This document shows positions 7,052 through 23,048 of a DNA stretch of 32,000 bases, in pieces. Location of the stretch: assembly GCA_900234795.1 (NCBI GenBank), contig LT962688.1, forward strand, positions 870,001 through 902,000, in the 5' to 3' direction. The position numbers and the translations under genes were made by a program. The notes under the pieces were generated by a model. It saw nothing but the letters and a program-made list of their open reading frames with translations. It did no database searches and was not told the origin of the DNA. Numbering within the stretch: position 1 is the first letter of the stretch; every line of letters starts with the position of its first letter. The DNA comes from Methylorubrum extorquens. Its GTDB lineage: Bacteria; Pseudomonadota; Alphaproteobacteria; Rhizobiales; Beijerinckiaceae.

Positions 7052-7070
7052 TGGTGCCCGGGAGAGGATT
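7052..7070 (-). other. tRNA-Leu 3'-end-like fragment (putative distal att direct repeat)
   Basis: TGGTGCCCGGGAGAGGATT versus the tRNA-Leu 3' end TGGTGCCCAGGAAAGGACT (22964-22982): 16/19 identical in the same orientation. All three mismatches are transitions, and similarity ends in the T-loop. Confidence 0.5.
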
Positions 7071-7128
7071 GCCCACTTTCCCAACAAAATCTAGCAAATG
7101 CAGAAGCTTAGACTGCGCGCCTCGGCAA

Positions 7129-7141
7129 CGTTTGTACCACC
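7129..7141 (+). repeat. candidate integrase arm-type site (left end)
   Basis: cgtttgtaccacc is identical to 22888-22900. It lies 59 nt inside the left att-like core. Confidence 0.35.
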
Positions 7142-7233
7142 GTCGATGCAGAATTCATTCGACGGTAGGGTCGCTGGTCATTCGCCAATGTCGATCTAAA
7201 GCTGCAGCGGCTGAGTGCAGCAAACAGCACCGA

Positions 7234-8064
7234 TCAGTCCTCGCGGGAAGCAGGCGAAGGCGCATCACCGAGCCCGGGTTCTGGCGGTTGAATCGGGGCA
7301 GCGGCCTTTCGCGCTTCCGTCACAAGCGTGTCGAGAATCGCTTGCGCCCTCTGGGTAATGATCGGCCCTGCCGCGGCCGGACTTCCTGCCTCGAACGGCG
7401 GCTTGGGCGCATATTCGGCGACGAGTTGTGCCGTTCGTGCATAATCCTCGCCACGCAGGCGGGCGGCGAGTGCCAGGGCGAAGTCGAGCCCAGCCGAGAC
7501 GCCGGCGGCGGTCACCCGGTTGCCGTCAAAGACGACCCGATCATCAACCGGGATCGCCCCGAGGAGCGGAAGAACAGTATCGCGAGCACACCAGTGTGAG
7601 GTCGCGCGATAGCCCTTCAAGAGCCCGGCTGCTCCGAGGATCAGCGATCCGGTACAGACACTCGTCACCCAGCGCGCCCGGCTGGCCCGATCCCGCAGAA
7701 AGGCCAGCGTGGCAGCGTCGCGCATTTGAGCGGCTGTGCCATCGCCTCCCGGCACGAAGAGCACATCCAGTTCGGTGGGACAGTCGGCAAAGCTCGTCGT
7801 GGCAACGAGGCTGAGGCCGGTGTCGCTTGAGACGGGTCCGACGGACCGAGCGACGAGGTGAAGGGTGTCGGGTGCAAGTCCCGCCAGCAGCCCTTGTGGG
7901 CCAACCACATCGAGGGCCGTCATACCGGGATAGAGCAGCATGGCGATGCGAACTGGCGTCATCCTCACGGATGGCCTGGTTGCATCAAGCGCCTGTGACG
8001 GTCGAGCCGCCAGGAGGGCAGCAGCGGCCAGCGCAGCCGCCCCGATCTCACGCCGGTTCGCCAC
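7234..8064 (-). CDS. DJ-1/PfpI family protein with N-terminal export signal
   Basis: 276 aa with a GTG start. The N-terminus MANRREIGAAALAAAALLAARPSQA looks like a Tat/Sec signal. A nucleophile elbow SVCTGS is followed by the class-I glutamine amidotransferase-like fold motif LLKGYRATSHW. Confidence 0.85.
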   Translation of the reverse strand: MANRREIGAAALAAAALLAARPSQALDATRPSVRMTPVRIAMLLYPGMTALDVVGPQGLLAGLAPDTLHLVARSVGPVSSDTGLSLVATTSFADCPTELDVLFVPGGDGTAAQMRDAATLAFLRDRASRARWVTSVCTGSLILGAAGLLKGYRATSHWCARDTVLPLLGAIPVDDRVVFDGNRVTAAGVSAGLDFALALAARLRGEDYARTAQLVAEYAPKPPFEAGSPAAAGPIITQRAQAILDTLVTEARKAAAPIQPPEPGLGDAPSPASRED

Positions 8065-8267
8065 AGCTGTTGGCCTTCAAGTTGCGGTTCTTTCGTCCGA
8101 AAAGCGCCAATTCGGGACCTTCGTTCCAAGGCAACGGAATGGCCGCTTGTCACGTAACGGCCAACGTTGACGCGGGAGGCAGCCGCGCTTGCGGTCATCG
8201 CGGCCGGTGCTCAGACAAGAAGGCCACGACGCTTGTCCCGCCCGATGCCCGACCTCACCTCCCTCTC

Positions 8268-9530
8268 ATGGAAAGTGCGTTCGACGTCATCATCGTAGGG
8301 GGAGGCGCCGCCGGCATCGGCGCCGCGCGACGGCTGGCAGCACACGGGCTGACTGTGCTGATGCTTGAGGCGTCCTCGCGGCTCGGGGGGCGTGCATTCA
8401 CGCAGGATCTTGGTGGGTATCCGCTCGACCTCGGTTGCGAGTGGCTCCATTCGGGTGAACGCAACGCCTGGGTCGCCATCGCCGAAGCGTCCGGCTTCTC
8501 GGTCGACCGAAGCGAACCGCCATGGGCCAAAGCGCATCCCGGCATCGTCCCGGACGAGCAGGAGGCGGCGCAAAGGGCGTTCCAGGACTGGAACGAGCGG
8601 CTTCCTCACGTCGCGCAGGGCAGCGATCACGCGAGCGATGCCCTTGAGCCCGGGGGCAAGTGGAACGCCTACGTGCGGGCCATCGCCGGCTTCATGAGCG
8701 GAGTGGCGCCCGAGCGAATATCCGCCGCCGACTACATGGCCTACGACACGGCCTCGACCGGTCGGAACTGGAGCGTGCCACTTGGATACGGCACGCTCGT
8801 TGCCGCCAGCCTACCGTCCGCGGTGGCGCTGCGCCTAGCGACCCCTGCTGAGCGGATCGACCTGACGGCGGACGGCGTCGCTGTTACAACGCGGGCCGGC
8901 ACTGTCCGCGCCGGGATCGCCATCCTCACGGTCTCGACCGCAGTCCTGGCCGGCGACGCAATCCGCCTACCCTCCGGGACCGAAGCCTGGCGCGAAGCGG
9001 CCGCCGTCCTGCCGCTCGGGCGCAACGAGAAGGTCTTCCTAGAGATCGGGCGCGATACCGCTTTCGAGCCGGATTCGCACGCCTACGGCAACCTGCGCGA
9101 CGTGAGGTCGGCCGCGTACTCGATCCGGCCTAACGGCTGGCCGGTCATCGAGGCGTTCCTCGGCGGCGAGGGGGCCCGCATTGTGGAGGAGGAGGGCCCA
9201 GCCGCCGGCTTCGCCCATGTGTCCACCGAGTTGATCGCCCTGTTCGGCAGCGACGTGGCATCAGCCCTTCGCCCGCTCGCGGCCACGTCGTGGAGCCGTA
9301 TGGCGTTCATCGGGGGCGCCTATAGCTGCGCCCTGCCGGGGCAGTCGTTCGCGAGGGCGCGGCTGGCCCAGCCGTTCGAGGATCGGCTGTTCTTCGCCGG
9401 CGAGGCGACGCACCCGTTCGACTTCACCACCGCCCATGGAGCCCACGATAGTGGGGTGCGCGCCGCCGACGAGGCGTTGGCCGCGCTTCGGGCGAAACGT
9501 CCTGCCTTCCGGCGCGCCCTGCTTTCGTGA
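8268..9530 (+). CDS. flavin-containing amine oxidase family protein (FAD-dependent)
   Basis: Starts MESAFDVIIVGGGAAGIGAARRL (GxGxxG), followed by LEASSRLGGR, which is typical of the amine oxidase/monoamine oxidase fold. The C-terminal motif is FFAGEAT. The track ORF from 7827 is an upstream extension. Confidence 0.85.
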   Translation: MESAFDVIIVGGGAAGIGAARRLAAHGLTVLMLEASSRLGGRAFTQDLGGYPLDLGCEWLHSGERNAWVAIAEASGFSVDRSEPPWAKAHPGIVPDEQEAAQRAFQDWNERLPHVAQGSDHASDALEPGGKWNAYVRAIAGFMSGVAPERISAADYMAYDTASTGRNWSVPLGYGTLVAASLPSAVALRLATPAERIDLTADGVAVTTRAGTVRAGIAILTVSTAVLAGDAIRLPSGTEAWREAAAVLPLGRNEKVFLEIGRDTAFEPDSHAYGNLRDVRSAAYSIRPNGWPVIEAFLGGEGARIVEEEGPAAGFAHVSTELIALFGSDVASALRPLAATSWSRMAFIGGAYSCALPGQSFARARLAQPFEDRLFFAGEATHPFDFTTAHGAHDSGVRAADEALAALRAKRPAFRRALLS

Positions 9531-9710
9531 GAGCCGTCACGCGGGCGAACGGCGGGCGTCTTACCGCAAGGCGTCCACGCGACCTACGGCGACCACTTCG
9601 TCGCGAACCGGTCTTGAGCGTGTCCAGGCCCTTTCGCCGAGAACGGGGTCGTGGGAGGCCGCCGGCGGCCAACGACGGGGGTTCGAGTGTTCCACCGGCG
9701 CCGCGCAGAG

Positions 9711-10289
9711 TCATGCGGTCCGTTCCGTCGCTCCCTTCCGGGCCTGCGCCACGGTCAACCACACGGCCGAGACCAGGAAGTAGAAGGCGCCGAACGCGGC
9801 GTAGGGAGCGATGTCCGTGACCCCGGGCGTCGAGGCACCATTCGCCTTGAAGATAAAGTGGGCGCCCGCGAGGGCCGACTGGGCTCCGCTCAGCACCATC
9901 GCCCACTGAGCACCTGCATTCCAGCGCCGCACGCCGGTCGCAAGCTGCAGCAGGCCGGAGAGGATAGCCCAGCCCCCGAACACTGCCAGCACCGCGTGCT
10001 GGCTCCACCCCAGTGCGACGGCGACCGCGAGGGCGACGACGGTGCTAGCAGCCGCGTTGAGCGCCTGGCTGGGATTGGCGGCCAAGCCGCCACTGCGCCG
10101 CGCGTCGATAACATTGGCGACGGCGTCCCAGGCGGGATAGGCGACCAGGAGCGCCGCCGCGGCCGGCGGCATGGCCCTTCCGATGGTGAAGGCGGCCGCA
10201 ACCCAACCGACGGACACTCCGGCACGGAGGAAGTAATAGGAGCTCAGCCAGCCGGAAGCGTCACGGGCGGGTTGTTGGACGGTTGTCAT
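9711..10289 (-). CDS. DUF308/HdeD-like integral membrane protein
   Basis: About 192 aa from MTTVQQPARD with six hydrophobic segments. The family call rests only on overall resemblance. Confidence 0.5.
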   Translation of the reverse strand: MTTVQQPARDASGWLSSYYFLRAGVSVGWVAAAFTIGRAMPPAAAALLVAYPAWDAVANVIDARRSGGLAANPSQALNAAASTVVALAVAVALGWSQHAVLAVFGGWAILSGLLQLATGVRRWNAGAQWAMVLSGAQSALAGAHFIFKANGASTPGVTDIAPYAAFGAFYFLVSAVWLTVAQARKGATERTA

Positions 10290-10443
10290 TGACGTTCCCT
10301 TCGGGTGCGCGACGCAGCGGAGGATCGGGACGACGGGCAATCACGCGGCAGCCTCGGCAACCGAAACGCCAGGCTTCGTGAAAGCGGTGTCTTTTCAGAG
10401 AGATACGCGTCGCTTCGGAAGGTAGGCTTACAATCGGACGCCG

Positions 10444-11352
10444 ATGGCACCCATGACCGGATCACTGGAAAACTTGACCGTTCTTCCGGACGGCGGACCG
10501 GGCGTCTCCGGCGACCTGCTCTCGCACGTACTGGCGCAGATCCGGCTCACTGGGGACCATGTCCGATCACACGAAGTCGCGTGGTCGAACGTCTTGGACC
10601 TGGAAGCCGGAGCCGCCCATGTCCTGGTGGTCGCCGACGGCTCGCTCGACGTCGAGGACGATGGCGGGGAGCGCGTCGTGATTGACACGGGCGATCTCGT
10701 GCTTCTGCCCCGCGGGCTCGGAGGGTCCAGGCTGGTGGCGTCCGCCTCGCACGCATCGGTGATCATCTGCCGGTTCTCGTTCGATCCCCACAGCCTTCGC
10801 GGCATGATCTCAGCCCTGCCCGGGCGCATCCACATCCGGCGCGCCGAAGGAGCCGGGTGGCTTGACGGCATCGTACCCTTCCTGATGGTCGAGGTGACTG
10901 ACGACGAGCCCGGCGCGGCCCTAATGATCTCACGGATCATCGACGTCATCGTCATCCGCACCTTGCGGACCTGGGTGCAGCGCGGGCACACCACTGGATG
11001 GCTGGGGGGGTTGTCCGACGCCCGCATCGCCCGAGCGTTGAAGGTCATACACGAGCGACCACTGCAGCGCTGGAGCGTCGACACCCTGGCCGACGCGGCC
11101 GGCATGTCCCGGTCGAGCTTCTGCGAACGTTTCGCCGCGCTCGTCGGGCGCTCGCCACTGCGCTACCAGAACGAGTGGCGGCTCACGCTCGCCCGGAACA
11201 TGCTCGTCGCCCGCGAGGCACGTGTCGGCGAGGTCGCACTACGGGTCGGCTATGAGTCCGAAGCAGCGTTCAGCCGTGCTTACAAGGCGATGTTCGGCCA
11301 TCCACCGAGGGACGAGCCGGCACTGCCGAGCGAGAAGAGATTGCAAAAGTGA
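10444..11352 (+). CDS. AraC family transcriptional regulator (cupin-type N-terminal domain)
   Basis: The C-terminal double HTH reads SVDTLADAAGMSRSSFCERFAALVGRSPLRYQNEWRLTLARNML ... VGEVALRVGYESEAAFSRAYKAMFGHPP. Confidence 0.88.
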   Translation: MAPMTGSLENLTVLPDGGPGVSGDLLSHVLAQIRLTGDHVRSHEVAWSNVLDLEAGAAHVLVVADGSLDVEDDGGERVVIDTGDLVLLPRGLGGSRLVASASHASVIICRFSFDPHSLRGMISALPGRIHIRRAEGAGWLDGIVPFLMVEVTDDEPGAALMISRIIDVIVIRTLRTWVQRGHTTGWLGGLSDARIARALKVIHERPLQRWSVDTLADAAGMSRSSFCERFAALVGRSPLRYQNEWRLTLARNMLVAREARVGEVALRVGYESEAAFSRAYKAMFGHPPRDEPALPSEKRLQK

Positions 11353-11417
11353 GCCGTTTGCTTGGAACGGCAGGGGCGTAATGAACCACGATCTGCTGAT
11401 GTCGTGACCGCCGCTCA

Positions 11418-11566
11418 AAGGTCCGCTTCTTCCTGCCGAGCGGACGTTTCGGCCGGTAGGCTTGAAGGTCTGCAAGGGGTCAGGAGTTCGCACGCCGATG
11501 GTTCTGCTGTGCGCCACAACCGGACCGTGGCCTTGGGTCCAGAAGCGGCCCTTCGGCTTTGCGCCC
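11418..11566 (+). repeat. dispersed ~150-nt repeat, copy A
   Basis: The core 11461-11504 matches 16644-16687 at 38/44 positions. Flanking blocks (aaggtcc ... cggac.tt.cgg ... ccttcggctt.gcgc) recur at the same offsets. Both copies have the same orientation. Confidence 0.55.
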
Positions 11567-11755
11567 GTCTCAATCATTCGGCAACAGTCGCGAGCATCAC
11601 CGAAGCAGAGGTCGGCTCAGGCCGGGTTGCACGTTCTGGGAGCGCCACCCCAGACCTGCAGCTTCGACCATGCATACGCTCGCGCGCAGGACTTGCCTAC
11701 CGAAGCTCAGCCACTGATGCTGCGCCGAAGCGGATGACCTGCGAGGGGGCGACCC

Positions 11756-13372
11756 ATGGAAACGATCGGCCGTGATCTGCGCGAGATGCAGCGCATCCCC
11801 TTGGCCGAATCGCATGTCGCCGCGCTTCGGGCGATCGGAGCCGAGAAGCACTACCCGGCCGGTACATTTCTCGTCCATGCCGGTGATCCAGCCGACCGCT
11901 TCGTCTATGTCGAGGCCGGCGAGATCGAGGTGGTCAACCCTTTCACAAATGAGCGCCATCTGCCGTCTACCCTCGGACCGACCCAGTTCATGGGCGAGAT
12001 CTCGTTCCTGAACGGCGGGGTCTGGTCGATGCCCATGCGGGCGAGTGCGGATACCATCGTCACCGAGGTGCCGCGCCCGGAGATGCTGCGACTGATGTCC
12101 GAAGTCCCGGAGATGTCGGACATCATCATCACGGTCCTGGCCGCACGGCGGCGGCGGCAGCTCGACTCGCACGACGGCACGCTGGTTCTCCTCGGCGAGG
12201 ACGACGACCGGAGCGTCCGGCGGATTGCCGAGTTCGCGAGCCGGAACCGCCTTCCTTACAGGTCCTATCCGCTGGGCAGCCCGGAGGCGGCGAGCGTCGC
12301 CAGGAGTTGCTCAATCTCGTCCGAACGGCCGGCTGTGATCTTCGGGCGGGATATCGTCGTGACCGAACCGACACCCGCCAAGGTCGCGCGGCTGCTCGGC
12401 CTCGACTACAACCTCGTCGACGACGAGGCCTTCGACGTCCTTATCGTGGGCGGCGGACCGGCCGGGGTGGCAGCGGGCGTCTATGCGGGCGCGGAGGGGC
12501 TTCGCGCGCTGGTCATCGAGGATGTGGCGATCGGCGGTCAGGCCGGCACATCGAGCCGGATCGAGAACTATATGGGCTTCCCGACCGGGATCTCGGGCGC
12601 CGACCTCGTCTGGCGCGGCGAGGTCCAGGCGATGAAGTTCGGCACGCGGTTCGCGATGCCGCGGCGCGTGGCGAAGCTGGAACGGCTTGAGGACGGATCG
12701 TTCTGTGCAACGTTCGACAACGGCCGGCGCGTTCGGGGACAGGCCGTCGTTGTCGCGACCGGCGTCCAGTACCGAAGATTGCCGATCGAACGCCTCGAGG
12801 CGTTCGAGGGTGCAGGCATCTACTACGCTGCGACGGAGATCGAGGCACGCTACTGCAGGAATGCCGAGACGATCATCATCGGCGGCGGCAACTCAGCCGG
12901 CCAGGCGGCGATGTATCTCAGCCGCTCAGCCCGACACGTTCGCCTTCTCGTGCGTGGGCAATCGCTTGCGACGTCCATGTCGAACTACCTGTCGAGCCGG
13001 CTGGAGGCCGACCCGGGGATCACGATCGAGTACGGGGCCGAAATCACCGCCCTCCACGGCGACGATCACCTCGATGCGGTGACGATCCGCAACGTCGCCG
13101 ACGGCACGATGCGCACGATCTCGACCTGTGCCGTTTTCGTCATGGTGGGCGCCGCCCCCAACACCGGCTGGCTCTCGGGGCTCGTCGAACTCGATGGCCA
13201 CGGCTTCGTGCTGACCGGGGACGCGATCGGCGCGCGTTCACCCTATGCGACGTCGCATCCGGGAATCTTCGCGGTCGGCGACGTGCGAGCCAACTCCGTC
13301 AAGCGTGTCGCAGCCTCGGTCGGCGAGGGTTCGGTCGTCATCTCCAAGGTGTGGGAGCACGTTCGGACGTAG
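11756..13372 (+). CDS. cyclic-nucleotide-binding domain fused to a thioredoxin-reductase-like FAD/NAD(P) oxidoreductase
   Basis: The N-terminal cNMP-binding fold contains FMGEISFLNG...MRASA. The C-terminal two-dinucleotide-fold region contains DVLIVGGGPAGVAAG, IIIGGGNSAGQAA and GIFAVGDVR. A good RBS (GAGGGGG) lies 6 nt upstream of the ATG. Confidence 0.85.
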   Translation: METIGRDLREMQRIPLAESHVAALRAIGAEKHYPAGTFLVHAGDPADRFVYVEAGEIEVVNPFTNERHLPSTLGPTQFMGEISFLNGGVWSMPMRASADTIVTEVPRPEMLRLMSEVPEMSDIIITVLAARRRRQLDSHDGTLVLLGEDDDRSVRRIAEFASRNRLPYRSYPLGSPEAASVARSCSISSERPAVIFGRDIVVTEPTPAKVARLLGLDYNLVDDEAFDVLIVGGGPAGVAAGVYAGAEGLRALVIEDVAIGGQAGTSSRIENYMGFPTGISGADLVWRGEVQAMKFGTRFAMPRRVAKLERLEDGSFCATFDNGRRVRGQAVVVATGVQYRRLPIERLEAFEGAGIYYAATEIEARYCRNAETIIIGGGNSAGQAAMYLSRSARHVRLLVRGQSLATSMSNYLSSRLEADPGITIEYGAEITALHGDDHLDAVTIRNVADGTMRTISTCAVFVMVGAAPNTGWLSGLVELDGHGFVLTGDAIGARSPYATSHPGIFAVGDVRANSVKRVAASVGEGSVVISKVWEHVRT

Positions 13373-13592
13373 ATCGCCCCCCTGCCACGTCCGACGGGGG
13401 CGCTGACTCTATCGACGACCGGGCCCGCGCTCCTGCCGTTTCAGCCGGCGCTGCGACGGCTTGGGCGATCCGGATCAGTCTCGACGATCCCGCGATGGCC
13501 AAGCGCAGCGCGGAGATCGCCAAGGCGGCGTATCCATGGGTGCCAGTCCTGGCCCGCTTCACCGACTCGGGCCACGCGCCTACATACCCGGC

Positions 13593-14279
13593 ATGCCGGT
13601 CCTCGTAGCGCTCGGAGCCGCCCTCCTGTTCGGCCTCGTGTTCGGCCCTCAGTGGTGGGTGCGCCGGGCGATGCAGCAACACGCCACCGAGCGGCCGGAC
13701 TTACCCGGGACCGGGGGAGAGCTCGCGCGCCATCTGCTCGACCAAGCACGACTCGAGCACGTTCCCGTCGAGGTCGCGCCGGCCGACCACTTTGACCCGG
13801 TCGCGAACGTCGTGCGCTTGTCGCCGCAGAACCATGACGGCCGCTCGATCACGGCGGTCGCGGTCGCGGCGCACGAGGTCTCCCACGCGCTCCAGCACGC
13901 GGCGGGGGACCGGCTGCTCGCGGCACGGGTGAGGTTCGCCCCGGTCGTGCAGGGCTTCGAGTTCGCCGCGGCCGTGGTGACGATGACCGCGCCCTTGATG
14001 CTCGCCATCCTCAAGTCGCCTGTCCTGCTCGCCCTGCAGGTGGGGGTCGGCATCGCGCTCCTCGGTGCGCGCCTCGTGTTCCACCTCTTGACGCTGCCCG
14101 TCGAGCTTGACGCGAGCTTTCGCCGGGCTCTGCCTATCCTGGAAACGGGTCGCTTCCTCGAGGCTGACGATATGCTTGGCGCCCGCACCGTACTGCGCGC
14201 TGCGGCTCTCACCTACGTCGCTTCGTCCCTCGTGTCGCTCGTGAACATCGCCCGCTTTCGGCGGCTCCTGCCATTCTGA
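13593..14279 (+). CDS. membrane zinc metallopeptidase (YugP/Zn_peptidase_2-like)
   Basis: Has an N-terminal TM segment, a ...DHFDP... motif, HExxH (AAHEVSHALQH) and C-terminal TM helices. Starts at ATG 13593. Confidence 0.75.
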   Translation: MPVLVALGAALLFGLVFGPQWWVRRAMQQHATERPDLPGTGGELARHLLDQARLEHVPVEVAPADHFDPVANVVRLSPQNHDGRSITAVAVAAHEVSHALQHAAGDRLLAARVRFAPVVQGFEFAAAVVTMTAPLMLAILKSPVLLALQVGVGIALLGARLVFHLLTLPVELDASFRRALPILETGRFLEADDMLGARTVLRAAALTYVASSLVSLVNIARFRRLLPF

Positions 14280-14416
14280 GACCGATGAGGCGCGCGTCCG
14301 ATTTCCTGCTGCGCTCCATGCAGGCGGACCGTCTCTGATCGGCCAGCACCGGCCAACACGCAGCGCTCGCCTCAGCGTCTCAGATGGATGGTTTCCTGCC
14401 TGTCCGGTTCCAGAAA

Positions 14417-14481: not shown

Positions 14482-14523
14482 CATGGCCGGGCACTGGTGG
14501 CGCTTCCGGCAGGCTCCCTCCTG

Positions 14524-14925: not shown

Positions 14926-14927
14926 CC

Positions 14928-15614: not shown

Positions 15615-15722
15615 TGCTCTCCGAGTTTTTCGCTTGGGTGAGGGGACAGTCTTGATTTCTGAGGCGTTCGCGCGGGTCGCGCTTGCGCCGGCTCAGGGAA
15701 GGTAATTGGCTTCAGCTCACAG

Positions 15723-15737
15723 TAGACCGGTCGTCTC
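15723..15737. promoter_or_regulatory. candidate TetR operator upstream of the DJ-1/PfpI gene
   Basis: TAGACCGGTCGTCTc shares 14 nt with the palindrome at 16411-16425. It lies 109-123 nt upstream of the 15614 start. Confidence 0.45.
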
Positions 15738-15787
15738 GAATTTATCCGTGATAAGTTGGGTTTTCGGCAACGTTGGACCGCGGTGGA

Positions 15788-16390: not shown

Positions 16391-16410
16391 GAGGATGAGA
16401 TAGACTGAAT

Positions 16411-16425
16411 TAGACCGGTCGTCTA
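16411..16425. promoter_or_regulatory. candidate TetR autoregulatory operator
   Basis: TAGAC-CGGTC-GTCTA has perfect 5-bp inverted arms and lies 21-35 nt upstream of the tetR start. An extra TAGAC half-site sits at 16401-16405. Confidence 0.5.
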
Positions 16426-16601
16426 GAGGCGTTTTGCATTTTTTGTCGGAGGGATCACGCAAGTTCGCCGAGCCGTTTTCGCAGCCTGCGGACGTCACCG
16501 CGGAATGTCGTATCGCTGGTGTCCGCTTTCAGGAAGCGGGCACGTCGCCTGCTTCGACCCAATCGGGTCGGAGGTGGAACGTCTGGTTCCAGGCGAAAGA
16601 C

Positions 16602-16750
16602 TAAGGTCCAGTTTCCAACCAATCCGGACCTTCGGCGGCAGCGCCTTGAATGTCCGCGAGGGGTCAGGAGTTCGCGCGCCAATAGTTCGACGATCCGCTA
16701 GCAGCGATCCTTGGACCAGCTTCGGGAGGTGGACCTTCGGCTTCGCGCTC
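16602..16750 (+). repeat. dispersed ~150-nt repeat, copy B
   Basis: See copy A. The core is 16644-16687 (cttgaatgtccgcgaggggtcaggagttcgcgcgccaatagttc). Confidence 0.55.
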
Positions 16751-16849
16751 ACGCCCGCCATGCGACCTGTGCGAGCGACGCCCTCGAAGGGCCATTCACA
16801 GCAGCCTCGACCGCCGAGCTCGATCGCTCGAACAAGGAGGTCGAAGCCG

Positions 16850-19800
16850 CTAGGCAGCGTGCTCGATGTCGCCTGGGCCGGTCATCGGCGCGCTTGCAGC
16901 GTGCTGCTTGAGCCGCGCGTTGCCGGAGAGGCTGCGCAGCAGGACGTAGAAGACCGGCGTCAGGAACAGGCCGAAAGCGGTCACGCCGATCATGCCGGAG
17001 AACACGGCGACGCCCATGGCGCTGCGCATCTCCGCTCCGGCCCCGGTCGCCATCACGAGCGGCAGGACGCCCATGATGAAGGCCATCGAGGTCATCAGGA
17101 TCGGGCGCAGGCGCAGGCGGCTCGCCTCGATCGCCGCCTGGATCGGGCTGCGACCGGCGAACTCCAGCTCGCGGGCGAATTCCACGATCAGGATCGCGTT
17201 CTTGGCCGAGAGGCCGACCAGGACGATCAGTCCGATCTGCGTGAAGACGTTGTTGTCGCCCGCGGACAGCCAGACCCCGAACATGGCCGCCAGCAACCCC
17301 ATCGGCACGATCAGCAGGATGGCGAGCGGCAGGGCGAGGCTCTCGTACTGCGCCGCCAGCACGAGGAAGACGAGCAGCAGCGCCAGCGGGAAAACCCAGA
17401 TCCCGGAATTGCCGGCGATGAATTCCTGGTAGGTGAGGTCGGTCCATTCGAAGGCGAAGCCGCGCGGCAGCGTCTCGGCGGCGATGCGCGCTGCCGCCGC
17501 TTGCGCTTGGCCCGACGAAAAGCCGGGGGCGGCCCCCGCGTTGATGTCGGCGGAGAGAAAGCCGTTGTAGCGCATGGCCCGCTCCGGTCCCGCGGTCTGG
17601 CGGACACGCAGCAAGGCCGAGAGCGGCACCATCTCGCCCGATCCGGCGCGGACCTTCAGCAGCCCGACATCGTCCTGACGAGCGCGGAACGGCGCGTCGG
17701 CCTGGACGCGCACCGAGTAGGTGCGGCCGAACCGGTTGAAGTCGTTGACGTAGAGGGAACCGAGATAAATCTGCAGCGTGTCAAAGACGTCGGTGACCGG
17801 GATGCGGAGCTGGCGCGCCTTGGTCCGATCGATATCGGCGAAGAGTTGCGGCACGTTCATCTGGAAGCTGGAGAACAGGCCGGTGAGTTCGGGCGCCTGT
17901 GCGGCTTTCGCCATGAACGCCTTGGTCGCCTCGTTCAGCGCCTCGTAGCCGAGGCCGGCGCGATCTTCGATCTGCAGCTTGAATCCGCCGATCGTGCCCA
18001 ATCCGTTGACGGGCGGGGGCGGGAACATCGCGATGAAAGCTTCCGGGATCGCGGCGAACTTCCTGTTCAAGGACTGCGCGATGGCGGCCCCGCTCAGCGC
18101 GGGATCCTTGCGCTCCGCGAAGGGCTTGAGCGTCGAGAATACGATTCCCGAGTTCGAGCTGTTGGTGAAGCCGTTGATCGAGAGCCCCGGGAAGGCGACG
18201 GCACTCTCGACGCCCGGCTCCTTCAAGGCGATCTCGCTCATCGTGCGGATCACCTCCTCGGTCCGGTCGAGGGTGGCGCCGTCGGGCAGCTGCGCAAAGC
18301 CGACGAGGTACTGCTTGTCCTGACCCGGTACGAAACCGCCGGGGATCTGGCGGAACAGCACCACGGTCACGCCGACGAGCACGAGGTAGAGGACCATCAT
18401 CGCGCCTTTTCGCGACACGACGGAGGCGACGCCGCGTCCGTAGCCTTCGGAGGCCCGTCCGAAGGCGCGGTTGAACCGGCGGAAGAACCAGCCGAGCAGG
18501 GTGTCGAGCGCGCGGGTCAGCCGGTCCTTCGGCGCGTGATGGTCTCGGAGTAGGAGCGCCGAGAGGGCTGGCGACAGGGTCAGCGAGTTGATCGCCGAGA
18601 TGACGGTCGAGATCGCGATGGTCAGGGCGAACTGCTTGTAGAACTGGCCGGTCAGGCCGCTGATGAAGGCGAGCGGCACGAACACCGCGACGAGCACCAG
18701 CGCGATGGCGATGATCGGCCCCGAGACCTCGCGCATCGCCTGGTAGCTGGCGTCCCGCGGTGACAGCCCCGCCTTGATGTTGCGCTCGACATTCTCCACC
18801 ACGACAATGGCGTCGTCGACGACGATGCCGATGGCGAGCACGAGGCCGAACAGGCTCAGCGCGTTGATCGAGAAGCCGAAGGCATGCATCACCGCGAAGG
18901 TGCCGATGATGGAGACCGGCACGGCCAAGAGCGGGATGATCGAGGCTCGCCAGGTCTGCAGGAACAGGATCACCACGAGAACGACGAGGGCGATCGCCTC
19001 CAGCAGCGTGTGAATGACGGCCTCGATCGAGGCGCGCACGAACTGCGTCGGATCGTAGACGATCTGGTAGTCGACCCCTTCCGGCATATTCTTCTTGATC
19101 TCGGCCATGGTCCGGCGGACCTCGTCCGAGATCTGGATCGCATTCGATCCCGGCGACTGAGAGATCGGGATCGCCACCGCCGACTTGTTGTCGAGGAGCG
19201 AGCGGAGCGCGTAGTCCGAGGCGCCGAGTTCGATCCGGGCGATGTCGCGAAGCCGCGTGATCTCGCCGTTCTCCCCGGTCTTCACGACGATGTCGCCGAA
19301 CTGCTCCTCGCTGGTGAGGCGCCCTTCCGCGTTGAGCGAGAGCTGCAGGTCGAGGCCGGGAACGGCCGGTGAAGCGCCGATGACGCCCGCGGCCGCCTCC
19401 ACGTTCTGCGCCTGAATCTCCCGCACCACGTCGCCTGCCGACAGGCCGTGCTCGGCCACCTTCTGAGGATCGAGCCAGATCCGCATCGCGTAGTCGCCGG
19501 AGCCGAACAGCTGCACCTGTCCCACGCCGTCGATGCGGGCGAGGCGGTCCTTGATGTTCAGCACGGCATAGTTGCGCAGATAGGTCATGTCGTAGCGCCC
19601 GTTGGGCGAGACGAGGTGAACGACCATGGTCAGGTCGGGCGAGGACTTTACCGTGACGATGCCGAGCTGGCGCACGATCGCCGGCAGGCGCGGTTCGGCC
19701 TGCGAGACACGATTCTGAACGAGCTGCTGCGCCTTGTCCGGATCGGTGCCGAGACGGAACGTGACGGTCAGGGTCATGACGCCGTCCGTCGTCGCTTGGC

Positions 19801-20044
19801 TCGACATGTAGAGCATGCCCTCGACACCGTTGATCTGCTCCTCGATCGGTGTCGCCACCGTTTCGACGATGACCTTGGGGTTGGCGCCCGGGAAGGTCGC
19901 CCGCACCACTACCGAGGGCGGCACAACGTCCGGATACTCGGAGATCGGCATCGCGAAGAGCGAGATGAGGCCGCCGATGAAGATGAGCACCGAGAGCACG
20001 CCCGCGAAGATCGGGCGGTCGATGAAGAACTTGGACAGGTTCAC
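16850..20044 (-). CDS. RND efflux transporter permease subunit (HAE1/AcrB-like)
   Basis: 1064 aa with a GTG start. The N-terminus MNLSKFFIDRPIFAGVLSVLIFIGG, the 12-TM/two-large-loop architecture and the motif VVDDAIVVVENVERN are all typical of this family. Confidence 0.95.
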   Translation of the reverse strand: MNLSKFFIDRPIFAGVLSVLIFIGGLISLFAMPISEYPDVVPPSVVVRATFPGANPKVIVETVATPIEEQINGVEGMLYMSSQATTDGVMTLTVTFRLGTDPDKAQQLVQNRVSQAEPRLPAIVRQLGIVTVKSSPDLTMVVHLVSPNGRYDMTYLRNYAVLNIKDRLARIDGVGQVQLFGSGDYAMRIWLDPQKVAEHGLSAGDVVREIQAQNVEAAAGVIGASPAVPGLDLQLSLNAEGRLTSEEQFGDIVVKTGENGEITRLRDIARIELGASDYALRSLLDNKSAVAIPISQSPGSNAIQISDEVRRTMAEIKKNMPEGVDYQIVYDPTQFVRASIEAVIHTLLEAIALVVLVVILFLQTWRASIIPLLAVPVSIIGTFAVMHAFGFSINALSLFGLVLAIGIVVDDAIVVVENVERNIKAGLSPRDASYQAMREVSGPIIAIALVLVAVFVPLAFISGLTGQFYKQFALTIAISTVISAINSLTLSPALSALLLRDHHAPKDRLTRALDTLLGWFFRRFNRAFGRASEGYGRGVASVVSRKGAMMVLYLVLVGVTVVLFRQIPGGFVPGQDKQYLVGFAQLPDGATLDRTEEVIRTMSEIALKEPGVESAVAFPGLSINGFTNSSNSGIVFSTLKPFAERKDPALSGAAIAQSLNRKFAAIPEAFIAMFPPPPVNGLGTIGGFKLQIEDRAGLGYEALNEATKAFMAKAAQAPELTGLFSSFQMNVPQLFADIDRTKARQLRIPVTDVFDTLQIYLGSLYVNDFNRFGRTYSVRVQADAPFRARQDDVGLLKVRAGSGEMVPLSALLRVRQTAGPERAMRYNGFLSADINAGAAPGFSSGQAQAAAARIAAETLPRGFAFEWTDLTYQEFIAGNSGIWVFPLALLLVFLVLAAQYESLALPLAILLIVPMGLLAAMFGVWLSAGDNNVFTQIGLIVLVGLSAKNAILIVEFARELEFAGRSPIQAAIEASRLRLRPILMTSMAFIMGVLPLVMATGAGAEMRSAMGVAVFSGMIGVTAFGLFLTPVFYVLLRSLSGNARLKQHAASAPMTGPGDIEHAA

Positions 20045-20143
20045 GTTCGCCCTCCGGGGTCGGGCATCAGGCGCAAGGCGTCGGGCGGCCGCCGAAAGGG
20101 CGGTCGCACGTGTCGGGTCGGGAATGGTCGAAGGGGCTGAAAG

Positions 20144-21409
20144 CTACGGGGCCTCGGCGCTGGCGAGCTCGCGCGCTCCGGCGGCACTGGGCGCACGCAC
20201 GCCCATCGCCACCCGCTCAGGGCGCAGAAGCGTGCCGGGGCGGATGCGCTGCAATCCGTTGACGACGATGCGCTCGCCGCCGGAGAGGCCCGCGGTCACG
20301 ACGCGCAGGCCCTCGACCGCCCGGCCGAGGGTGACGGCGCGGAACTCGGCGCGGTCGTCCGCTCCGACCACGAGCACGAACTTCTTGTCCTGATCGGTGC
20401 CGACGGCCCGTTCATCGACGAGGAGCAAGCGCTCGGGCGTGGCCTGACCGAGCCGCATCCGCGCAAACTGACCGGGAATGAGGTGGCCGTCGCCATTGGC
20501 GAAGGTGGCGCGCACCCGAACCGTGCCGCTGCGGGCATCGACCTTGTTATCGATGAACTGCAGATGCCCGCGGGCGCGAACCCCATCCGCCGTCACCATC
20601 TCGACGGGGATGCGGTCGAGCCTGCCGCGCCCGCCTGCGGGGCCGGCGATCGAGGCCAGCGCCTTCACAACAACGGTCTCGTCCGCGTCAAAGCTCGCGT
20701 AGACCGGATCGACCGAGACGAGGGTGGTGAGCACCGCGGCCCCCGCTCCCGTCGCCACGAGGTTGCCCGGCGTGATCTCCCGGCGTCCGACGCGTCCGCC
20801 CACCGCGGCCCGCACCTGGGTATAGCTGAGGTTCAGGCGCGCCGCCTCCAGCGCCGCCTTCGCCGCGTCGAGGCTCGCCTTCGCCTCCTTGAAGGCGTTG
20901 GCGCGCACGTCGAGGTCGCGCGCCGTGACGATCTGCTGGTCGGAGAGTCTGCGCCCGCGCTCCAGATCGCTCGACGTCAGGGCGACGCGCGCCTCGGCGC
21001 CGGCCACCTGGGCCTCCAGACGCTGGACCTCCGCCGCGTAGGGCGCCGGATCGATGGTCACGAGGAGATCGCCGGCCTCGACAAGCTCGCCTTCCACGAA
21101 GTGCGTGGACTGGATCGCGCCGCCGACGCGGGCCCGCACGTCGATTCGGTCGACGGCTTCGAGCCGGCCCGAAAACGCGTCCCAGAGGACGACGTCCCGC
21201 GGCTCGACGGTGGCGACCGAGGCCGGTGCGGCCTGCTCGGCTTGCGGCGTTGCGGCGACCGCCGCATCCCCCTTGAAGAGCGGTGCCGAGACGAACTGAT
21301 AGGAAGCACCCGCCAGCAAGGCGAGAGCGAGGCCGACCCCGGCGCTGCGCCGGAAGAGAAAATGGCCTAGGAACGTGTCGCGATGGGGGTGCACGGCCGG
21401 CTCCGACAT
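20144..21409 (-). CDS. RND efflux periplasmic adaptor (membrane fusion protein)
   Basis: Has an N-terminal TM anchor, a lipoyl-like motif (GELVEAGDLLVTIDP), a coiled-coil and a beta-barrel region. Starts at ATG 21407-21409. GTG at 21394 is an alternative and has a better RBS (GGAG 6 nt upstream). Confidence 0.9.
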   Translation of the reverse strand: MSEPAVHPHRDTFLGHFLFRRSAGVGLALALLAGASYQFVSAPLFKGDAAVAATPQAEQAAPASVATVEPRDVVLWDAFSGRLEAVDRIDVRARVGGAIQSTHFVEGELVEAGDLLVTIDPAPYAAEVQRLEAQVAGAEARVALTSSDLERGRRLSDQQIVTARDLDVRANAFKEAKASLDAAKAALEAARLNLSYTQVRAAVGGRVGRREITPGNLVATGAGAAVLTTLVSVDPVYASFDADETVVVKALASIAGPAGGRGRLDRIPVEMVTADGVRARGHLQFIDNKVDARSGTVRVRATFANGDGHLIPGQFARMRLGQATPERLLLVDERAVGTDQDKKFVLVVGADDRAEFRAVTLGRAVEGLRVVTAGLSGGERIVVNGLQRIRPGTLLRPERVAMGVRAPSAAGARELASAEAP

Positions 21410-21434
21410 CTGTATCGTGTGATACACATGTCGG
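21403..21434. promoter_or_regulatory. 32-bp near-perfect palindrome, candidate TetR operator of the RND operon
   Basis: CCGACATcTGTATCgt|gtGATACAcATGTCGG. The outer 7-bp and inner 6-bp arms are perfect. It lies in the divergent tetR/adaptor region and overlaps the adaptor's upstream ATG. Confidence 0.5.
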
Positions 21435-21497
21435 CATGGACGCGGCACGTCAAGAGACTTATCTACCACTCGATACAAAAGTTGGAGCTTGCGGACA

Positions 21498-22103
21498 ATG
21501 GCGATGGGGCGGCCCCGGTCGTTCGACACGGACAAGGCCCTTGATGATGCGATGGAGGTGTTCTGGCGCCATGGCTACGACGGCGCGAGCCTCGCGATGT
21601 TGACCAAGGCGATGGGTATCAAGCCGCCGAGCCTCTACGCGGCCTTTGGCAGCAAGGAGGGTCTGCTCAAGGCGGCCCTCGACCGCTATGCCCAGCGCCG
21701 GTCCGAGCACATGCGCTACGTGCTTGCGGGCCCCACCGCGCGCGACGTGGCCGAGCGCTTCCTGTTCAGCATCGTGGAGAGCCACACCGATCCGGCCAAC
21801 CCACCCGGCTGCCTGCTGGTCCAGGGGGGGCTCGCCTGCGGCGAAGGCTCGGAGAACATCCCGTTCGAGTTGGCATCGCGGCGCGCGCTGTCCGAGACGG
21901 AACTGCGCGAGCGTTTCGTTCAGGCTCAGCAGGACGGCGACCTTGCCGAGGCCGCCGATCCCGCGGCACTGGCGCGGTTTCTCTCGACGGTTGCCTCGGG
22001 CATGGGCGTCCTCGCGTCGTCCGGAGCCGATCGGGGGGCCTTACGGGAGGTCGCGCGCGTCTCGCTCAGCGCCTTCCCAGGGCCCGAGAAAGGCAATCAA
22101 TAA
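21498..22103 (+). CDS. TetR/AcrR family transcriptional regulator
   Basis: Starts MAMGRPRSFDTDKALDDAMEVFWRHGYDGASLAMLTKAMGIKPPSLYAAFGSKEGL. ATG at 21498 has GGAG 10 nt upstream. It is divergent from the RND operon. Confidence 0.88.
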   Translation: MAMGRPRSFDTDKALDDAMEVFWRHGYDGASLAMLTKAMGIKPPSLYAAFGSKEGLLKAALDRYAQRRSEHMRYVLAGPTARDVAERFLFSIVESHTDPANPPGCLLVQGGLACGEGSENIPFELASRRALSETELRERFVQAQQDGDLAEAADPAALARFLSTVASGMGVLASSGADRGALREVARVSLSAFPGPEKGNQ

Positions 22104-22877
22104 GTGGAAGGCGTGAGCGTACGCCGCGTGGGTCGAAACCGACTTGCCGGTCCGTTCGGCCTCAAGCTACCAAGCCTCGACCAGGGCACTCAGCTTTTCC
22201 GGCCGTAACGTGGTCGGTGCTGTGCCGTACGGCTGGGCAGCCATCGGCGACGACGAAAAGGTTTGAGGCGCAATAAGGTGTTGGCCGACGTCGAGGGATT
22301 CGCCCTGTGCCGCGGCCTTGCGGATGAGACTTGCCCGCTGCATCACCGCCGTGACAGCCCAGGCGAGTTTTCGACGGTCCGACTTATCGCCAACAACGCC
22401 GCGCTGCTTCAGCGCTGCTTCAGCACGGCATCAGCTTGGTCGGTGCACCCCTCCGCCATGTCTCGCCGAGCACCGACCGCTGGATCTGCCGCCTCCTTGA
22501 TGAGCGTGGCACCCAGGTTCGGTTGAAGCGACCAGCCAGGCGGGCGGCGCGGCCAGAGATGCTCGCCGAGATCAATTCGCCAGAAGGCCTGCTGACTCGG
22601 CTCATCACGATACTGGTCGATCCACCATGCGTAGAGCGGGGCGGCCATCTCGTTTACCTCGCGCGCGCTCAGCAGCTTTGGGCCTGCGCGGAGGTTCGTC
22701 CACCGGAACGAACGCATGGGCATGGAGGTTCTTGGCGCGAACCGGATCCTTCGTGCCAAGGCTGATCTTCTCTTCGCGCTTGCCGAGGCACGCGAGAAGG
22801 TCGGCTGGCACGGCTCGCTGCAGATAGTAGATGCCGGTTTTGGGATGCTTCCAGGGACGCGTCGTCATCAACGACAT
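22084..22877 (-). pseudogene. tyrosine integrase remnant (N-terminal part only, multiply disrupted)
   Basis: MSLMTTRPWKHPKTGIYYLQRAVPADL...GTKDPVRAK continues after a frameshift as ...RWTNLRAGPKLLSAREVNEMAAPLYAWWIDQYRDEPSQ.... It is then broken by an 11-bp tandem duplication (22401-22422) and an in-frame TAG (22167-22169). No catalytic C-terminal domain remains. It is adjacent to the tRNA-Leu 3' end. Confidence 0.7.
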
Positions 22878-22902
22878 TTGTACCACCCGTTTGTACCACC
22901 CG
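22877..22902 (+). repeat. perfect 13-bp tandem direct repeat (tttgtaccacccg x2), candidate integrase arm-type sites
   Basis: Units at 22877-22889 and 22890-22902 overlap the integrase start. They lie 62 nt from the tRNA 3' end, and the motif recurs at 7129-7141. Confidence 0.5.
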
Positions 22903-22963
22903 GGCAGTCCTAAGTCTCTGTTTTCACTGATTGCTTTTGCGGCTCAGCGGCTTAGCCAGCTGA

Positions 22964-23048
22964 TGGTGCCCAGGAAAGGACTCGAACCTTCACCTCTTGC
23001 AAGACTGGTACCTGAAACCAGCGCGTCTACCAATTCCGCCACCTGGGC
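22964..23048 (-). tRNA. tRNA-Leu(CAG)
   Basis: The reverse complement reads GCCCAGGTGGCGGAATTGGTAGACGCGCTGGTTTCAGGTACCAGTCTTGCAAGAGGTGAAGGTTCGAGTCCTTTCCTGGGCACCA. It is 85 nt with a long variable arm, the anticodon loop TTCAGGT, and an encoded CCA. Confidence 0.93.

Follow-up and report, generated by a model that had tools for sequence, protein, structure and literature searches.

An ancient, probably immobilized genomic island at tRNA-Leu(CAG) of Methylorubrum extorquens with both ends still recognizable

A 15.9-kb block of the Methylorubrum extorquens chromosome (positions 7052-22963) is very likely a genomic island that was put into the 3' end of tRNA-Leu(CAG) by a DUF6538-family tyrosine integrase. 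Positions refer to the window, i.e., the whole stretch of 32,000 nt analyzed in this study (GCA_900234795.1, LT962688.1, 870,001-902,000 of the forward strand). The island is real, ancient, tRNA-linked, and by prediction immobilized, and represents the fossil of a mobile element of which both ends can still be recognized. The original prediction of an island at tRNA-Leu was supported, and all of its testable parts held. In relatives, the block was always linked to tRNA-Leu, its composition differed modestly but consistently from that of the flanks (GC3 of most genes), and the 19-mer at its distal end drifted among strains, which is not the behavior of a conserved element.

The two ends of the island

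The features of the two ends and of the adjacent left flank were as follows.

6351-6779, plus strand: DUF3597 gene (142 aa, Pfam), the last gene of the left flank
6975-7009, minus strand: intrinsic terminator with a hairpin fold, outside the island and 42 nt beyond the relic
7052-7070, minus strand: decayed displaced tRNA fragment (putative attR core), with a 16/19 match (15/17 when restricted to the part that fresh insertions duplicate)
7131-7141, minus strand: distal arm-type-like site GGTGGTACAAA, exactly 60 nt inside the core relic, with like motifs in the related loci L091 and L094
22082-22868, minus strand: integrase pseudogene, residues 1-262 of an approximately 542-aa integrase (Pfam DUF6538; tblastn/blastn against the intact L110 integrase)
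22869-22963, minus strand: tRNA-proximal (P') arm of the island (motif statistics; same layout in other DUF6538 loci)
22964-23048, minus strand: intact tRNA-Leu(CAG), the integration target (ARAGORN; Rfam RF00005, 55 bits)

The intact minus-strand tRNA-Leu(CAG) at 22964-23048 that had been predicted was the sole tRNA call in the window by both ARAGORN and Rfam, and its sequence was 100% identical to those of DM4 and PA1. Across the window, Rfam returned tRNA only, and sub-threshold matches on two hairpins were noise. The final 17-19 nt of this gene (22964-22982) are the attL core. Immediately past the tRNA, the P' arm contains a hairpin with a CTAAG loop (22944-22963), followed by two arm-type-like repeats (GGTGGTACAAA; 22890-22900 and 22877-22887 in the minus-strand reading), which lie 63 nt inside attL and abut the integrase start. 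The motif TTTGTACCACC was found in three copies in the window (0.04 expected), two at the integrase start and one at the distal end, exactly 60 nt inside the 19-mer at 7052-7070, and had no occurrences in the 89 loci searched.

At the distal end, TGGTGCCCGGGAGAGGATT (7052-7070) matched the 3' end of tRNA-Leu, TGGTGCCCAGGAAAGGACT, at 16 of 19 positions in the same orientation, with all three differences being transitions, and apart from the tRNA itself nothing else in the window came within three mismatches. The chance of such a match had been roughly put below 0.01, and the expectation per window was indeed 0.01 by shuffles and 0.007 by base composition. Additionally, in approximately 350 kb of related loci, sites with four or fewer mismatches were found only at tRNA-Leu genes, island junctions, and the distal relic. 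The distal core carried two to three mismatches that differed by strain, and the distal arm site of CM4 was split by a 13-nt insertion.

The minus-strand hairpin and U-tract expected 42 nt past the 19-mer were also identified, the stem having 12 bp (7009..6981) and the tract being U6 (82 nt fold, -27.3 kcal/mol, z = -3.97). This terminator was kept in all loci of the M. extorquens group and is probably the original terminator of tRNA-Leu, now located downstream of a DJ-1 gene. The distal junction was AT-richer, as had been noted, with a GC content of 0.61 at 6501-7500 versus 0.66-0.70 on either side. The neighboring DUF3597 gene has its own hairpin (6827-6854), and exact copies of its 142-aa protein were found in many M. 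extorquens genomes. A 293-aa form of this ORF was over-extended, and a homologue search with it gave only distant DUF3597 proteins. Elsewhere in the window, a tRNA-Gln fragment at 30378-30426 retains its own terminator, providing a parallel case.

Newer insertions were observed directly in two strains. L091 and L094 each contained a newer element, unrelated to the island, between tRNA-Leu and the island, and these insertions were independent. The newer junctions kept 19 nt (L091) and 17 nt (L094) of the tRNA end, and a motif similar to the arm site was found exactly 60 nt upstream of the junction (GGTGATACACA in L091, CATGGTACACA in L094). The distal repeat at 7052-7070 has the same length (17-19 nt) and register as these fresh junctions. 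These results indicate that tRNA-Leu remains a usable attB, at which a newer element has been inserted in tandem in some strains.

The integrase relic and its family

An integrase N-terminal remnant had been proposed 86 nt past the tRNA end, and its ATG (22878) and DUF6538 domain (Pfam, E = 7e-13) were confirmed; the family-typical start (MTTRPW) lies at 22868. The remnant, including the post-tRNA arm, shared 90% DNA identity with the intact L110 gene over 22082-22988 (tblastn, blastn), but it is frameshifted: compared with the intact gene, it lacks 11 nt near 22707 and has 11 extra nt near 22424. Homology extended no more than the first few residues into the SAM-like core-binding region, leaving only DUF6538 and approximately 200 further residues without the SAM-like core-binding and catalytic domains, and the downstream pseudogene frames gave no Pfam match even at E = 10. 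Judging from its sequence, the window copy is a relic of a DUF6538-type member and not a functional one, and the island is predicted to be inactive because the catalytic domain is deleted.

Intact relatives have the domain order DUF6538, SAM-like, and Phage_integrase. These intact integrases of 510-542 aa were located approximately 100 nt past tRNA-Leu(CAG), tRNA-Phe(GAA), or tRNA-Ser(CGA), behind paired TGGTACA repeats. At least 13 independent DUF6538 loci, intact or truncated, showed the order tRNA, hairpin, paired TGGTACA repeats, and integrase start. This layout, which was derived in the present analysis and has no published definition, was found at 22869-22963 of the window as well as in L110-L133. 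A literature search returned no paper on DUF6538. The present data outline for the first time how att sites are arranged in this uncharacterized integrase family and which tRNAs it targets (Leu-CAG, Phe-GAA, and Ser-CGA), an outline that could improve island finders for Alphaproteobacteria.

An AF2 model of DUF6538 (pLDDT 86) had the order strand-strand-helix-strand-helix. The N-domains of lambda Int and Tn916 Int have a fold of a three-stranded sheet plus a helix. A Foldseek search of the model against the PDB gave no match at E < 1, an AP2-DNA complex appearing only at E of approximately 6, and the sequence of the intact integrase had no match in the PDB. As no PDB neighbor was significant, DUF6538 is a putative arm-binding domain.

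Truncated DUF6538 fragments with their TGGTACA repeats may be retained for a function instead of being plain debris, for example as an arm-site-binding protein controlling the use of the tRNA-Leu attB by related incomers, or because the tRNA cannot do without the arm on its 3' side. This idea, which we regard as very improbable, is favored by the ten closest homologues of the integrase fragment, all of which were short (59-151 aa), and by the far better conservation of the arm and the first 40 codons: the P' arm was 98.9% identical to those of DM4 and PA1 and 96.8% identical to that of the intact L110 element, and the first 40 codons of the remnant were 95.8% identical, versus 91.3% for the rest of the pseudogene. 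Against it, strains differed in the frameshifts of the fragment. Moreover, the survival of the tRNA-proximal end can be explained without a function, because deletions reaching the tRNA would be lethal.

Cargo, distribution, and history

The island harbored the following cargo.

7234-8064, minus strand: DJ-1/PfpI family protein (Pfam PF01965), the gene nearest the distal end, with the lowest GC3 in the window (0.68)
8268-9530, plus strand: flavin amine oxidase (Pfam Amino_oxidase; 420 aa in relatives' calls; raw ORF from 7827)
9711-10340, minus strand: DUF308 membrane protein (Pfam PF03729; called 192 aa in relatives)
10444-11352, plus strand: AraC-family regulator with a cupin domain (Pfam Cupin_6, HTH_18)
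11756-13372, plus strand: fusion of a cyclic-nucleotide-binding domain and a thioredoxin-reductase-like flavoprotein (Pfam cNMP_binding, Pyr_redox_2)
13461-14279, plus strand: Zn-metallopeptidase (Pfam Zn_peptidase_2, E = 5e-57)
14527-14908, no single strand: amidase relic (tblastn with the intact 469-aa amidase of CM4, L107)
14928-15614, minus strand: DJ-1/PfpI family protein (Pfam PF01965)
15788-16498, minus strand: second TetR-family regulator (Pfam TetR_N, TetR_C_13; called 200 aa in relatives)
16850-21535, minus strand: RND efflux pair (Pfam ACR_tran, 1199 bits; HlyD_D23)
16850-20044, minus strand: AcrB-type pump of the RND pair (1064 aa)
20144-21535, minus strand: membrane-fusion protein (MFP) of the RND pair (called 421 aa in relatives)
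21489-22103, plus strand: TetR-family regulator (Pfam TetR_N, TetR_C_13; 98% aa identity to DM4/PA1)

Pfam confirmed the accessory-type cargo that the original prediction had listed (two DJ-1/PfpI proteins, amine oxidase, AraC, cNMP-TrxR-like protein, Zn-peptidase, TetR, and RND). The suspected amidase debris was likewise recovered with the intact CM4 amidase, as residues 409-469 on the minus strand (14527-14696) and residues 148-218 inverted on the plus strand (14696-14908). The DUF308 membrane protein is an additional cargo gene, absent from that list. Orthologues of the RND pair were found in L090-L093. No mobility genes besides the integrase, including a recombination directionality factor, remain in the island.

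The GC content was 0.669 in the island versus 0.688 in the flanks, the 32-kb window being a small baseline. On the same small baseline, GC3 was 0.68-0.83 in 8 of 11 cargo genes versus approximately 0.91 in flank genes; most island genes had values of 0.79-0.83, and the RND and MFP genes were core-like (0.87-0.91).

In every M. extorquens-group context retrieved, including AM1, CM4, DM4, and PA1, the island was present, colinear, and approximately 97% identical, as were the flanks. Identity to DM4 was 97.3% for the island, 96.8-98.1% for the flanks, 92.8% for the integrase relic, and 95.1% for the distal relic, and the distal relic was 85% identical to that of CM4. The rate of divergence was two- to threefold higher at the relic ends than in the cargo. 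Strain-specific changes were also found inside the island: L099 has a DDE transposase gene in place of the RND pump, and the amidase is intact only in CM4.

The block was confined to the M. extorquens group. It was absent past tRNA-Leu in M. populi and M. zatmanii, which have other DNA there; in M. zatmanii, homology ended exactly at the tRNA-Leu 3' end. M. populi shared 39 nt after tRNA-Leu with the window and had its own very decayed DUF6538-like start and none of the cargo, and therefore part of the tRNA-proximal relic may predate the cargo. Synteny of the left flank extended throughout the genus (including L001-L007) but ended at the DUF3597 stop codon, and the DNA past DUF3597 in other Methylobacterium/Methylorubrum species differed from lineage to lineage. 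Both synteny breaks with other species were at the predicted ends of the island.

The empty site that had been predicted (tRNA-Leu, terminator, DUF3597) had no counterpart in any genome examined, i.e., in 80 genome loci from a DUF3597 protein scan, the M. populi and M. zatmanii loci, and one metagenome scan. Among the 80 loci, the syntenic ones lost homology at the stop codon and had no tRNA-Leu nearby. In the leuC-tRNA-Leu loci of M. populi and M. zatmanii, 10 kb past tRNA-Leu had no similarity to the left flank of the window, and the predicted junction GGGCACCAATTGATCTCTGA had no exact match in the metagenome scan. The best leuC match (P0001) was rejected, its context being unrelated. Because the post-tRNA DNA of M. 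populi and M. zatmanii is unlike the left flank and the post-DUF3597 DNA of the other species varies by lineage, none of the loci compared shows the two flanks side by side; given the limited reach of the search, the missing empty site is absence of evidence only.

If there were no 15.9-kb island, the tRNA would be accompanied only by a small integrase remnant, the block would be ancestral chromosome, and the 19-mer would be a chance match. The fixation of the block throughout the M. extorquens group, its flank-like divergence, the small composition contrast, and the lack of an empty site in the loci searched are compatible with this reading. However, it is rendered extremely unlikely by the low chance expectation of the 19-mer, by the independent 11-mer arm motif at the same 60-nt distance as at the L091 and L094 ends, and by the two synteny breaks.

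A mosaic origin, in which the 15.9 kb were built by at least two events (tandem islands with an erased inner junction, or later insertions) and the integrase relic and distal att relic perhaps came from different elements, is unlikely. GC3 differs by module (0.68-0.83 on the left, from DJ-1 to TetR, versus 0.87-0.91 in RND/MFP), and where the modules meet (15.5-16.5 kb) the GC content drops to 0.61. Tandem accretion at tRNA-Leu in L091 and L094, the cargo-free decayed integrase start of M. populi, and the strain-specific changes within the island point in the same direction. On the other hand, the whole block was colinear in all sampled strains, and the island has no second integrase relic, no internal TGGTACA motif, and no internal att core. 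A candidate internal att site at 16584 was rejected: this best internal match (13/19) was equaled outside the island, did not exceed the background, and had no arm motif.

In the history that we propose for the island at tRNA-Leu, the element would have been acquired in a single event, when its attP core, identical to the terminal 17-19 nt of the tRNA, recombined with the tRNA-Leu gene. The tRNA would have been rebuilt at attL (22964-22982), and the displaced chromosomal copy would have been left at attR (7052-7070), just ahead of the original terminator (7009..6981). Probable binding sites of the integrase are the TGGTACA-type arm repeats, one inside attR and two inside attL, the latter overlapping the integrase start and promoter region. 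The insertion probably predates the divergence of the sampled M. extorquens-group strains (AM1, PA1, DM4, and CM4 among them). Subsequently, the 280 C-terminal residues of the integrase were lost, the catalytic domain with them, and frameshifts arose, changes that would have fixed the island in place. The cargo has probably since been inherited vertically under purifying selection, with att and int decaying at about the neutral rate.

Excision in trans by an intact DUF6538 integrase from a related element is conceivable because the tRNA-proximal arm is well preserved, both between strains (98.9% versus 91.3% for the adjacent pseudogene) and relative to the intact L110 arm, and related elements do enter the tRNA-Leu site. 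Nevertheless, an island that is not fully dead is very improbable: the distal core has strain-variable mismatches, the distal arm site is interrupted in CM4, every sampled genome has retained the island, and the arm may equally well be conserved because it adjoins the 3' end of an essential tRNA.

Comparison with known systems

The island at tRNA-Leu is an ordinary case of a well-known process and leaves the understanding of how tRNA-integrating elements work unchanged. Its recognition marks 16 kb of the "core" common to AM1, PA1, DM4, and CM4 as DNA that was acquired horizontally and later domesticated. Among the genes concerned are an RND efflux system with its regulators and a set for redox and detoxification functions. 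The island also provides a worked example of recognition after destruction of the integrase, through a 15/17 core and an arm motif at a constant distance of 60 nt.

ICEMlSymR7A, said to have been reported by Sullivan and Ronson in 1998, is reportedly a Mesorhizobium symbiosis island at tRNA-Phe with a tRNA-end duplication of approximately 17 nt and its integrase gene beside the tRNA. It is also said to be a 500-kb conjugative ICE with a P4-type integrase that still excises. Both are alphaproteobacterial elements in a tRNA 3' end with a short tRNA-end duplication and a tRNA-adjacent integrase gene; in contrast, the window island is of the DUF6538 type, 16 kb long, without transfer genes, and fixed.

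Islander islands have a tyrosine integrase by a regenerated tRNA and a same-orientation displaced 3' tRNA fragment at the far end, and tandem arrays at one tRNA are a recognized outcome (Hudson, Lau and Williams 2015, PMC4383910). The window island follows the same plan of an integrase by the tRNA and a displaced fragment, but with a truncated integrase pseudogene and a degenerate 16/19 fragment, so the Islander integrase filter could reject it, as could fragment matching if stringent. In KplE1/IntS-type modules, attL overlaps the integrase promoter, with integrase sites at the integrase start, and this overlap, linked to negative autoregulation, has been predicted for the majority of integrase genes associated with tRNAs (Panis et al. 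2010, PMC2951348). By analogy, the two TGGTACA repeats abutting the integrase start are candidate sites, although the window element differs in its integrase family and repeat sequence.

In the study of M. extorquens AM1 and DM4 by Vuilleumier et al. (2009, PMC2680597), many islands have a tRNA and an integrase on their flanks, and islands are defined as present in one strain and absent from the other. A term search of the article found neither tRNA-Leu nor a matching region. The organisms are the same, but compared with the islands described there, the window island is common to AM1 and DM4.

Ends and content of the island at tRNA-Leu

The original prediction had described a decayed 15.9-kb island running from tRNA-Leu(CAG) to a displaced copy of the tRNA 3' end, and this observation was confirmed in all details. 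The island ends are marked by the following features.

22964-23048, minus strand: tRNA-Leu(CAG), the sole tRNA in the window (ARAGORN and Rfam)
7052-7070, same orientation as the tRNA: TGGTGCCCGGGAGAGGATT, the only other window site within three mismatches of the tRNA-Leu 3' 19 nt
7009..6981, minus strand: terminator, a 12-bp hairpin followed by U6, 42 nt past the 7052-7070 fragment
7131-7141: third copy of GGTGGTACAAA, exactly 60 nt inside the distal 19-mer

In plus-strand reading, the final 19 nt of tRNA-Leu(CAG) are TGGTGCCCAGGAAAGGACT, from which the distal fragment differs by three transitions. Such a 19-mer match is expected by chance at about 0.01 (shuffles) or 0.007 (base composition, both strands), which supports its identification as a copy of the tRNA-Leu 3' end. 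The hairpin and U-tract noted beyond it also held up, the 82 nt from the fragment through the U-tract folding at -27.3 kcal/mol (z = -3.97), and the GC content drops to 0.61 over 6.5-7.5 kb, in agreement with an AT-richer left junction.

Additionally, the motif TTTGTACCACC (tRNA-strand reading GGTGGTACAAA) has three copies in the window, where 0.04 would be expected, and it was absent from a set of 89 other loci. Two copies, 13 nt apart, lie 63 nt past the tRNA-Leu end and extend up to where the integrase begins. A circular form would read one site, 60 nt, core, 63 nt, two sites, and the integrase gene; arm-type sites usually flank an attP core in such a manner. The motif is a second signature of the island ends, independent of the 19-mer.

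All accessory cargo items named in the prediction were identified by Pfam, and the amidase debris by homology to a 469-aa amidase; Pfam also revealed a DUF308 membrane protein that had not been listed. The amidase relic (14527-14908) consists of two pieces, with residues 148-218 inverted on the plus strand and adjoining residues 409-469 on the minus strand, and is not a simple deletion. The GC content of the island was 0.669 versus 0.688 in the flanks, the window being a small baseline. GC3 was 0.68 in the outermost DJ-1 gene, 0.79-0.83 in most cargo genes, and about 0.91 in flank genes, while the RND pump and its partner were core-like (0.87-0.91). This composition signal is modest, in line with a long residence of the island.

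The integrase relic and the DUF6538 family

The ORF starting directly past tRNA-Leu contains Pfam DUF6538 (E = 7e-13), which confirms the integrase N-terminal remnant. A metagenome scan using an alignment of DUF6538-type N-termini as the query recovered 28 loci. The frame continues from the match for 510-542 codons in 12 of these, and a 13th reaches 448 codons at its contig end. These 13 long-frame genes begin about 100 nt past a tRNA gene, namely Leu(CAG) (n = 6), Phe(GAA) (n = 3), or Ser(CGA) (n = 3) for the 12 full-frame genes and Leu(CAG) for the one cut by the contig end. The metagenomic DUF6538 integrases (L110-L133) form groups at the same three tRNAs. All four long proteins scanned combined DUF6538 with the Phage_integrase catalytic domain, and two of them also had the SAM-like core-binding domain. 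Paired repeats ahead of the integrase start were present in every family member examined, regardless of the tRNA, as was, immediately 3' of the tRNA, a hairpin whose loop reads CTAAG. We infer that DUF6538 is the arm-binding domain of the integrase. Its AlphaFold model is of good confidence (pLDDT 86) and has the order strand, strand, helix, strand, helix; a Foldseek search of the PDB with this model returned no significant neighbour, and a literature search for DUF6538 found no paper mentioning the domain.

The closest intact integrase, L110, lies at tRNA-Phe(GAA), whose 3' end has CCTGGGCACCA in common with tRNA-Leu(CAG). It shares 90% DNA identity with 22082-22988 of the window, and its first 53 residues are 91% identical to the relic. 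Given this likeness and the shared CCTGGGCACCA, a single DUF6538 integrase lineage seems able to use both tRNA-Leu and tRNA-Phe. With L110 as the reference, the window copy corresponds to residues 1-262 of 542, has two 11-nt indels (a deletion near 22707 and an insertion near 22424), and ends at 22082, the start of the TetR gene region. The catalytic domain is lost, and therefore the element is unable to move by itself.

In the 95-nt spacer that separates tRNA-Leu from the integrase start (22869-22963), a single position differs from DM4 and PA1, and the adjoining pseudogene body is 91.3% identical. The likely reason for this conservation is constraint, acting on the tRNA 3' flank or on the arm sites, or else homogenisation of the spacer by related elements entering the site.

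Distribution, age, and origin of the block

Identity of the window to M. extorquens DM4 and PA1 is about 96.8%, and to CP021054.1 it reaches 99.9%. The order leuC, tRNA-Leu, integrase relic, TetR, MFP, and RND was found in these sequences as well. The exact 142-aa DUF3597 protein is recorded in many genomes of the M. extorquens group, and all ten contexts shown (including AM1, CM4, and DM4) have the order DUF3597, DJ-1, amine oxidase, DUF308, AraC, cNMP-TrxR, Zn-peptidase, DJ-1, and TetR; CM4 is the only one of these ten with an intact amidase. M. populi and M. zatmanii retain the leuC-tRNA-Leu flank at 84-86% DNA identity, and their genes past the tRNA are wholly different from those of the window. 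Synteny of the left flank (prfC through DUF3597) extends to seven further Methylobacterium/Methylorubrum species; homology stops at the DUF3597 stop codon in all four species aligned, and the DNA beyond varies by lineage. Genome and metagenome scans, together with the M. populi and M. zatmanii loci, yielded no genome with tRNA-Leu followed by the 7009..6981 terminator and then DUF3597.

DNA identity to M. extorquens DM4 by region
Island: 97.3%
Flanks: 96.8-98.1%
Integrase relic region: 92.8%
Distal relic, 7052-7233: 95.1%

Against CM4, identity over the distal relic falls to 85%, and the distal 19-mer varies among strains, with CM4 keeping the tRNA-like A where the window has G; the CM4 arm motif is interrupted by a 13-nt insertion. 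This pattern is what an insertion predating the strain split should look like, in which the cargo would be under selection and the recombination sites would be drifting.

Two loci, L091 (GCA_036880645.1) and the JGI metagenome contig L094, match the window from the island to a point inside the tRNA, where the homology stops, and no tRNA is present at that point in either. Upstream lies unrelated DNA with DUF927 and other genes in L091, and Ros/MucR in L094. The junctions hold remnants of the tRNA end, 19 nt long in L091 (AGTCCTTTCCTGGGCACCA) and 17 nt plus one in L094 (AATCCTTTCCTGGGCACCA). They are the far ends of younger elements that entered between the tRNA and the older island, i.e., tandem accretion. 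Exactly 60 nt upstream of the junction are GGTGATACACA in L091 and CATGGTACACA in L094, the position that GGTGGTACAAA takes in the window. The duplicated stretch equals the window 19-mer in length and register, and the G-to-A change at its second position is already present in L094; therefore, the window relic is best scored as 15/17 across the duplicated part.

M. populi shares 39 nt past the tRNA with the window and has its own badly decayed DUF6538-like start; a copy of the core fragment, the arm, and the beginning of the integrase is also present elsewhere in M. populi, at an unrelated locus without a tRNA. At this locus (L095-L098), CCTTTCCTGGGCACTA, the same spacer, and arm repeats with a 72-aa DUF6538 fragment lie past an FAD-oxidase gene with no tRNA nearby. 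CCTTTCCTGGGCACTA precedes the DUF6538 gene by about 105 nt, and the two long loci (L095 and L096) carry a repABC cassette 4-8 kb upstream. The same attL-type relic is present here in a displaced copy, at a locus that is not a tRNA gene. Because of the shared 39 nt, the decayed start, and the displaced copy, the tRNA-proximal relic could be older than part of the cargo. A multi-step origin of the 15.9 kb, which draws on the same M. populi observations, is considered improbable.

Within the tRNA-Leu island, a 104-nt direct repeat (72% identity) was observed at two intergenic sites, 11461-11564 upstream of the cNMP-TrxR gene and 16645-16748 between the TetR gene and the RND pump gene 3' end. Possible explanations are a small repeated element and a regulatory region common to both sites.

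Flanking features and comparison with known systems

The minus strand at 30378-30426 carries the 3' 49 nt of tRNA-Gln(CTG), covering the anticodon stem through the 3' end, together with the gene's terminator; in place of the 5' half there is unrelated DNA of lower GC content, onward to 32000. This tRNA-Gln is intact in the PA1-like L092, and about 25 nt of it are left in DM4. The right end of the window is therefore the margin of another tRNA-linked island, distinct from the first and with its crossover in the anticodon loop.

In the left flank, the NMT1-type ABC substrate-binding gene (5112-6139, minus strand) is spread over three reading frames in the window, and all ten related genomes have it as one gene of 341 aa. 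It has two indels even against the 99.9%-identical CP021054.1, and represents either a recent pseudogene or sequencing errors. The 293-aa DUF3597 ORF starting at 5898 was rejected as an over-extension, the real protein being 142 aa (6351-6779). The tblastn matches from other species cover the full 293-residue ORF, including the upstream part; 5898-6350 had no Rfam match and may be an unrecognised leader or regulatory element.

Islands in the AM1/DM4 genome paper are defined as strain-specific regions (PMC2680597), and a term search of its text found neither tRNA-Leu nor a matching region. Unlike those islands, the present one is common to AM1 and DM4. In KplE1, integrase-binding sites overlap the integrase promoter at attL, and tRNA-associated integrases in general are predicted to share this arrangement (PMC2951348). 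The anatomy of the island is of the textbook type on which the Islander method is built, in which the regenerated tRNA gene and a displaced fragment mark the two ends and tandem arrays are recognised (PMC4383910). The finding is the right reading of an ordinary phenomenon in a previously unlisted island, and as a by-product it offers an initial outline of how the att sites of DUF6538 integrases are arranged.
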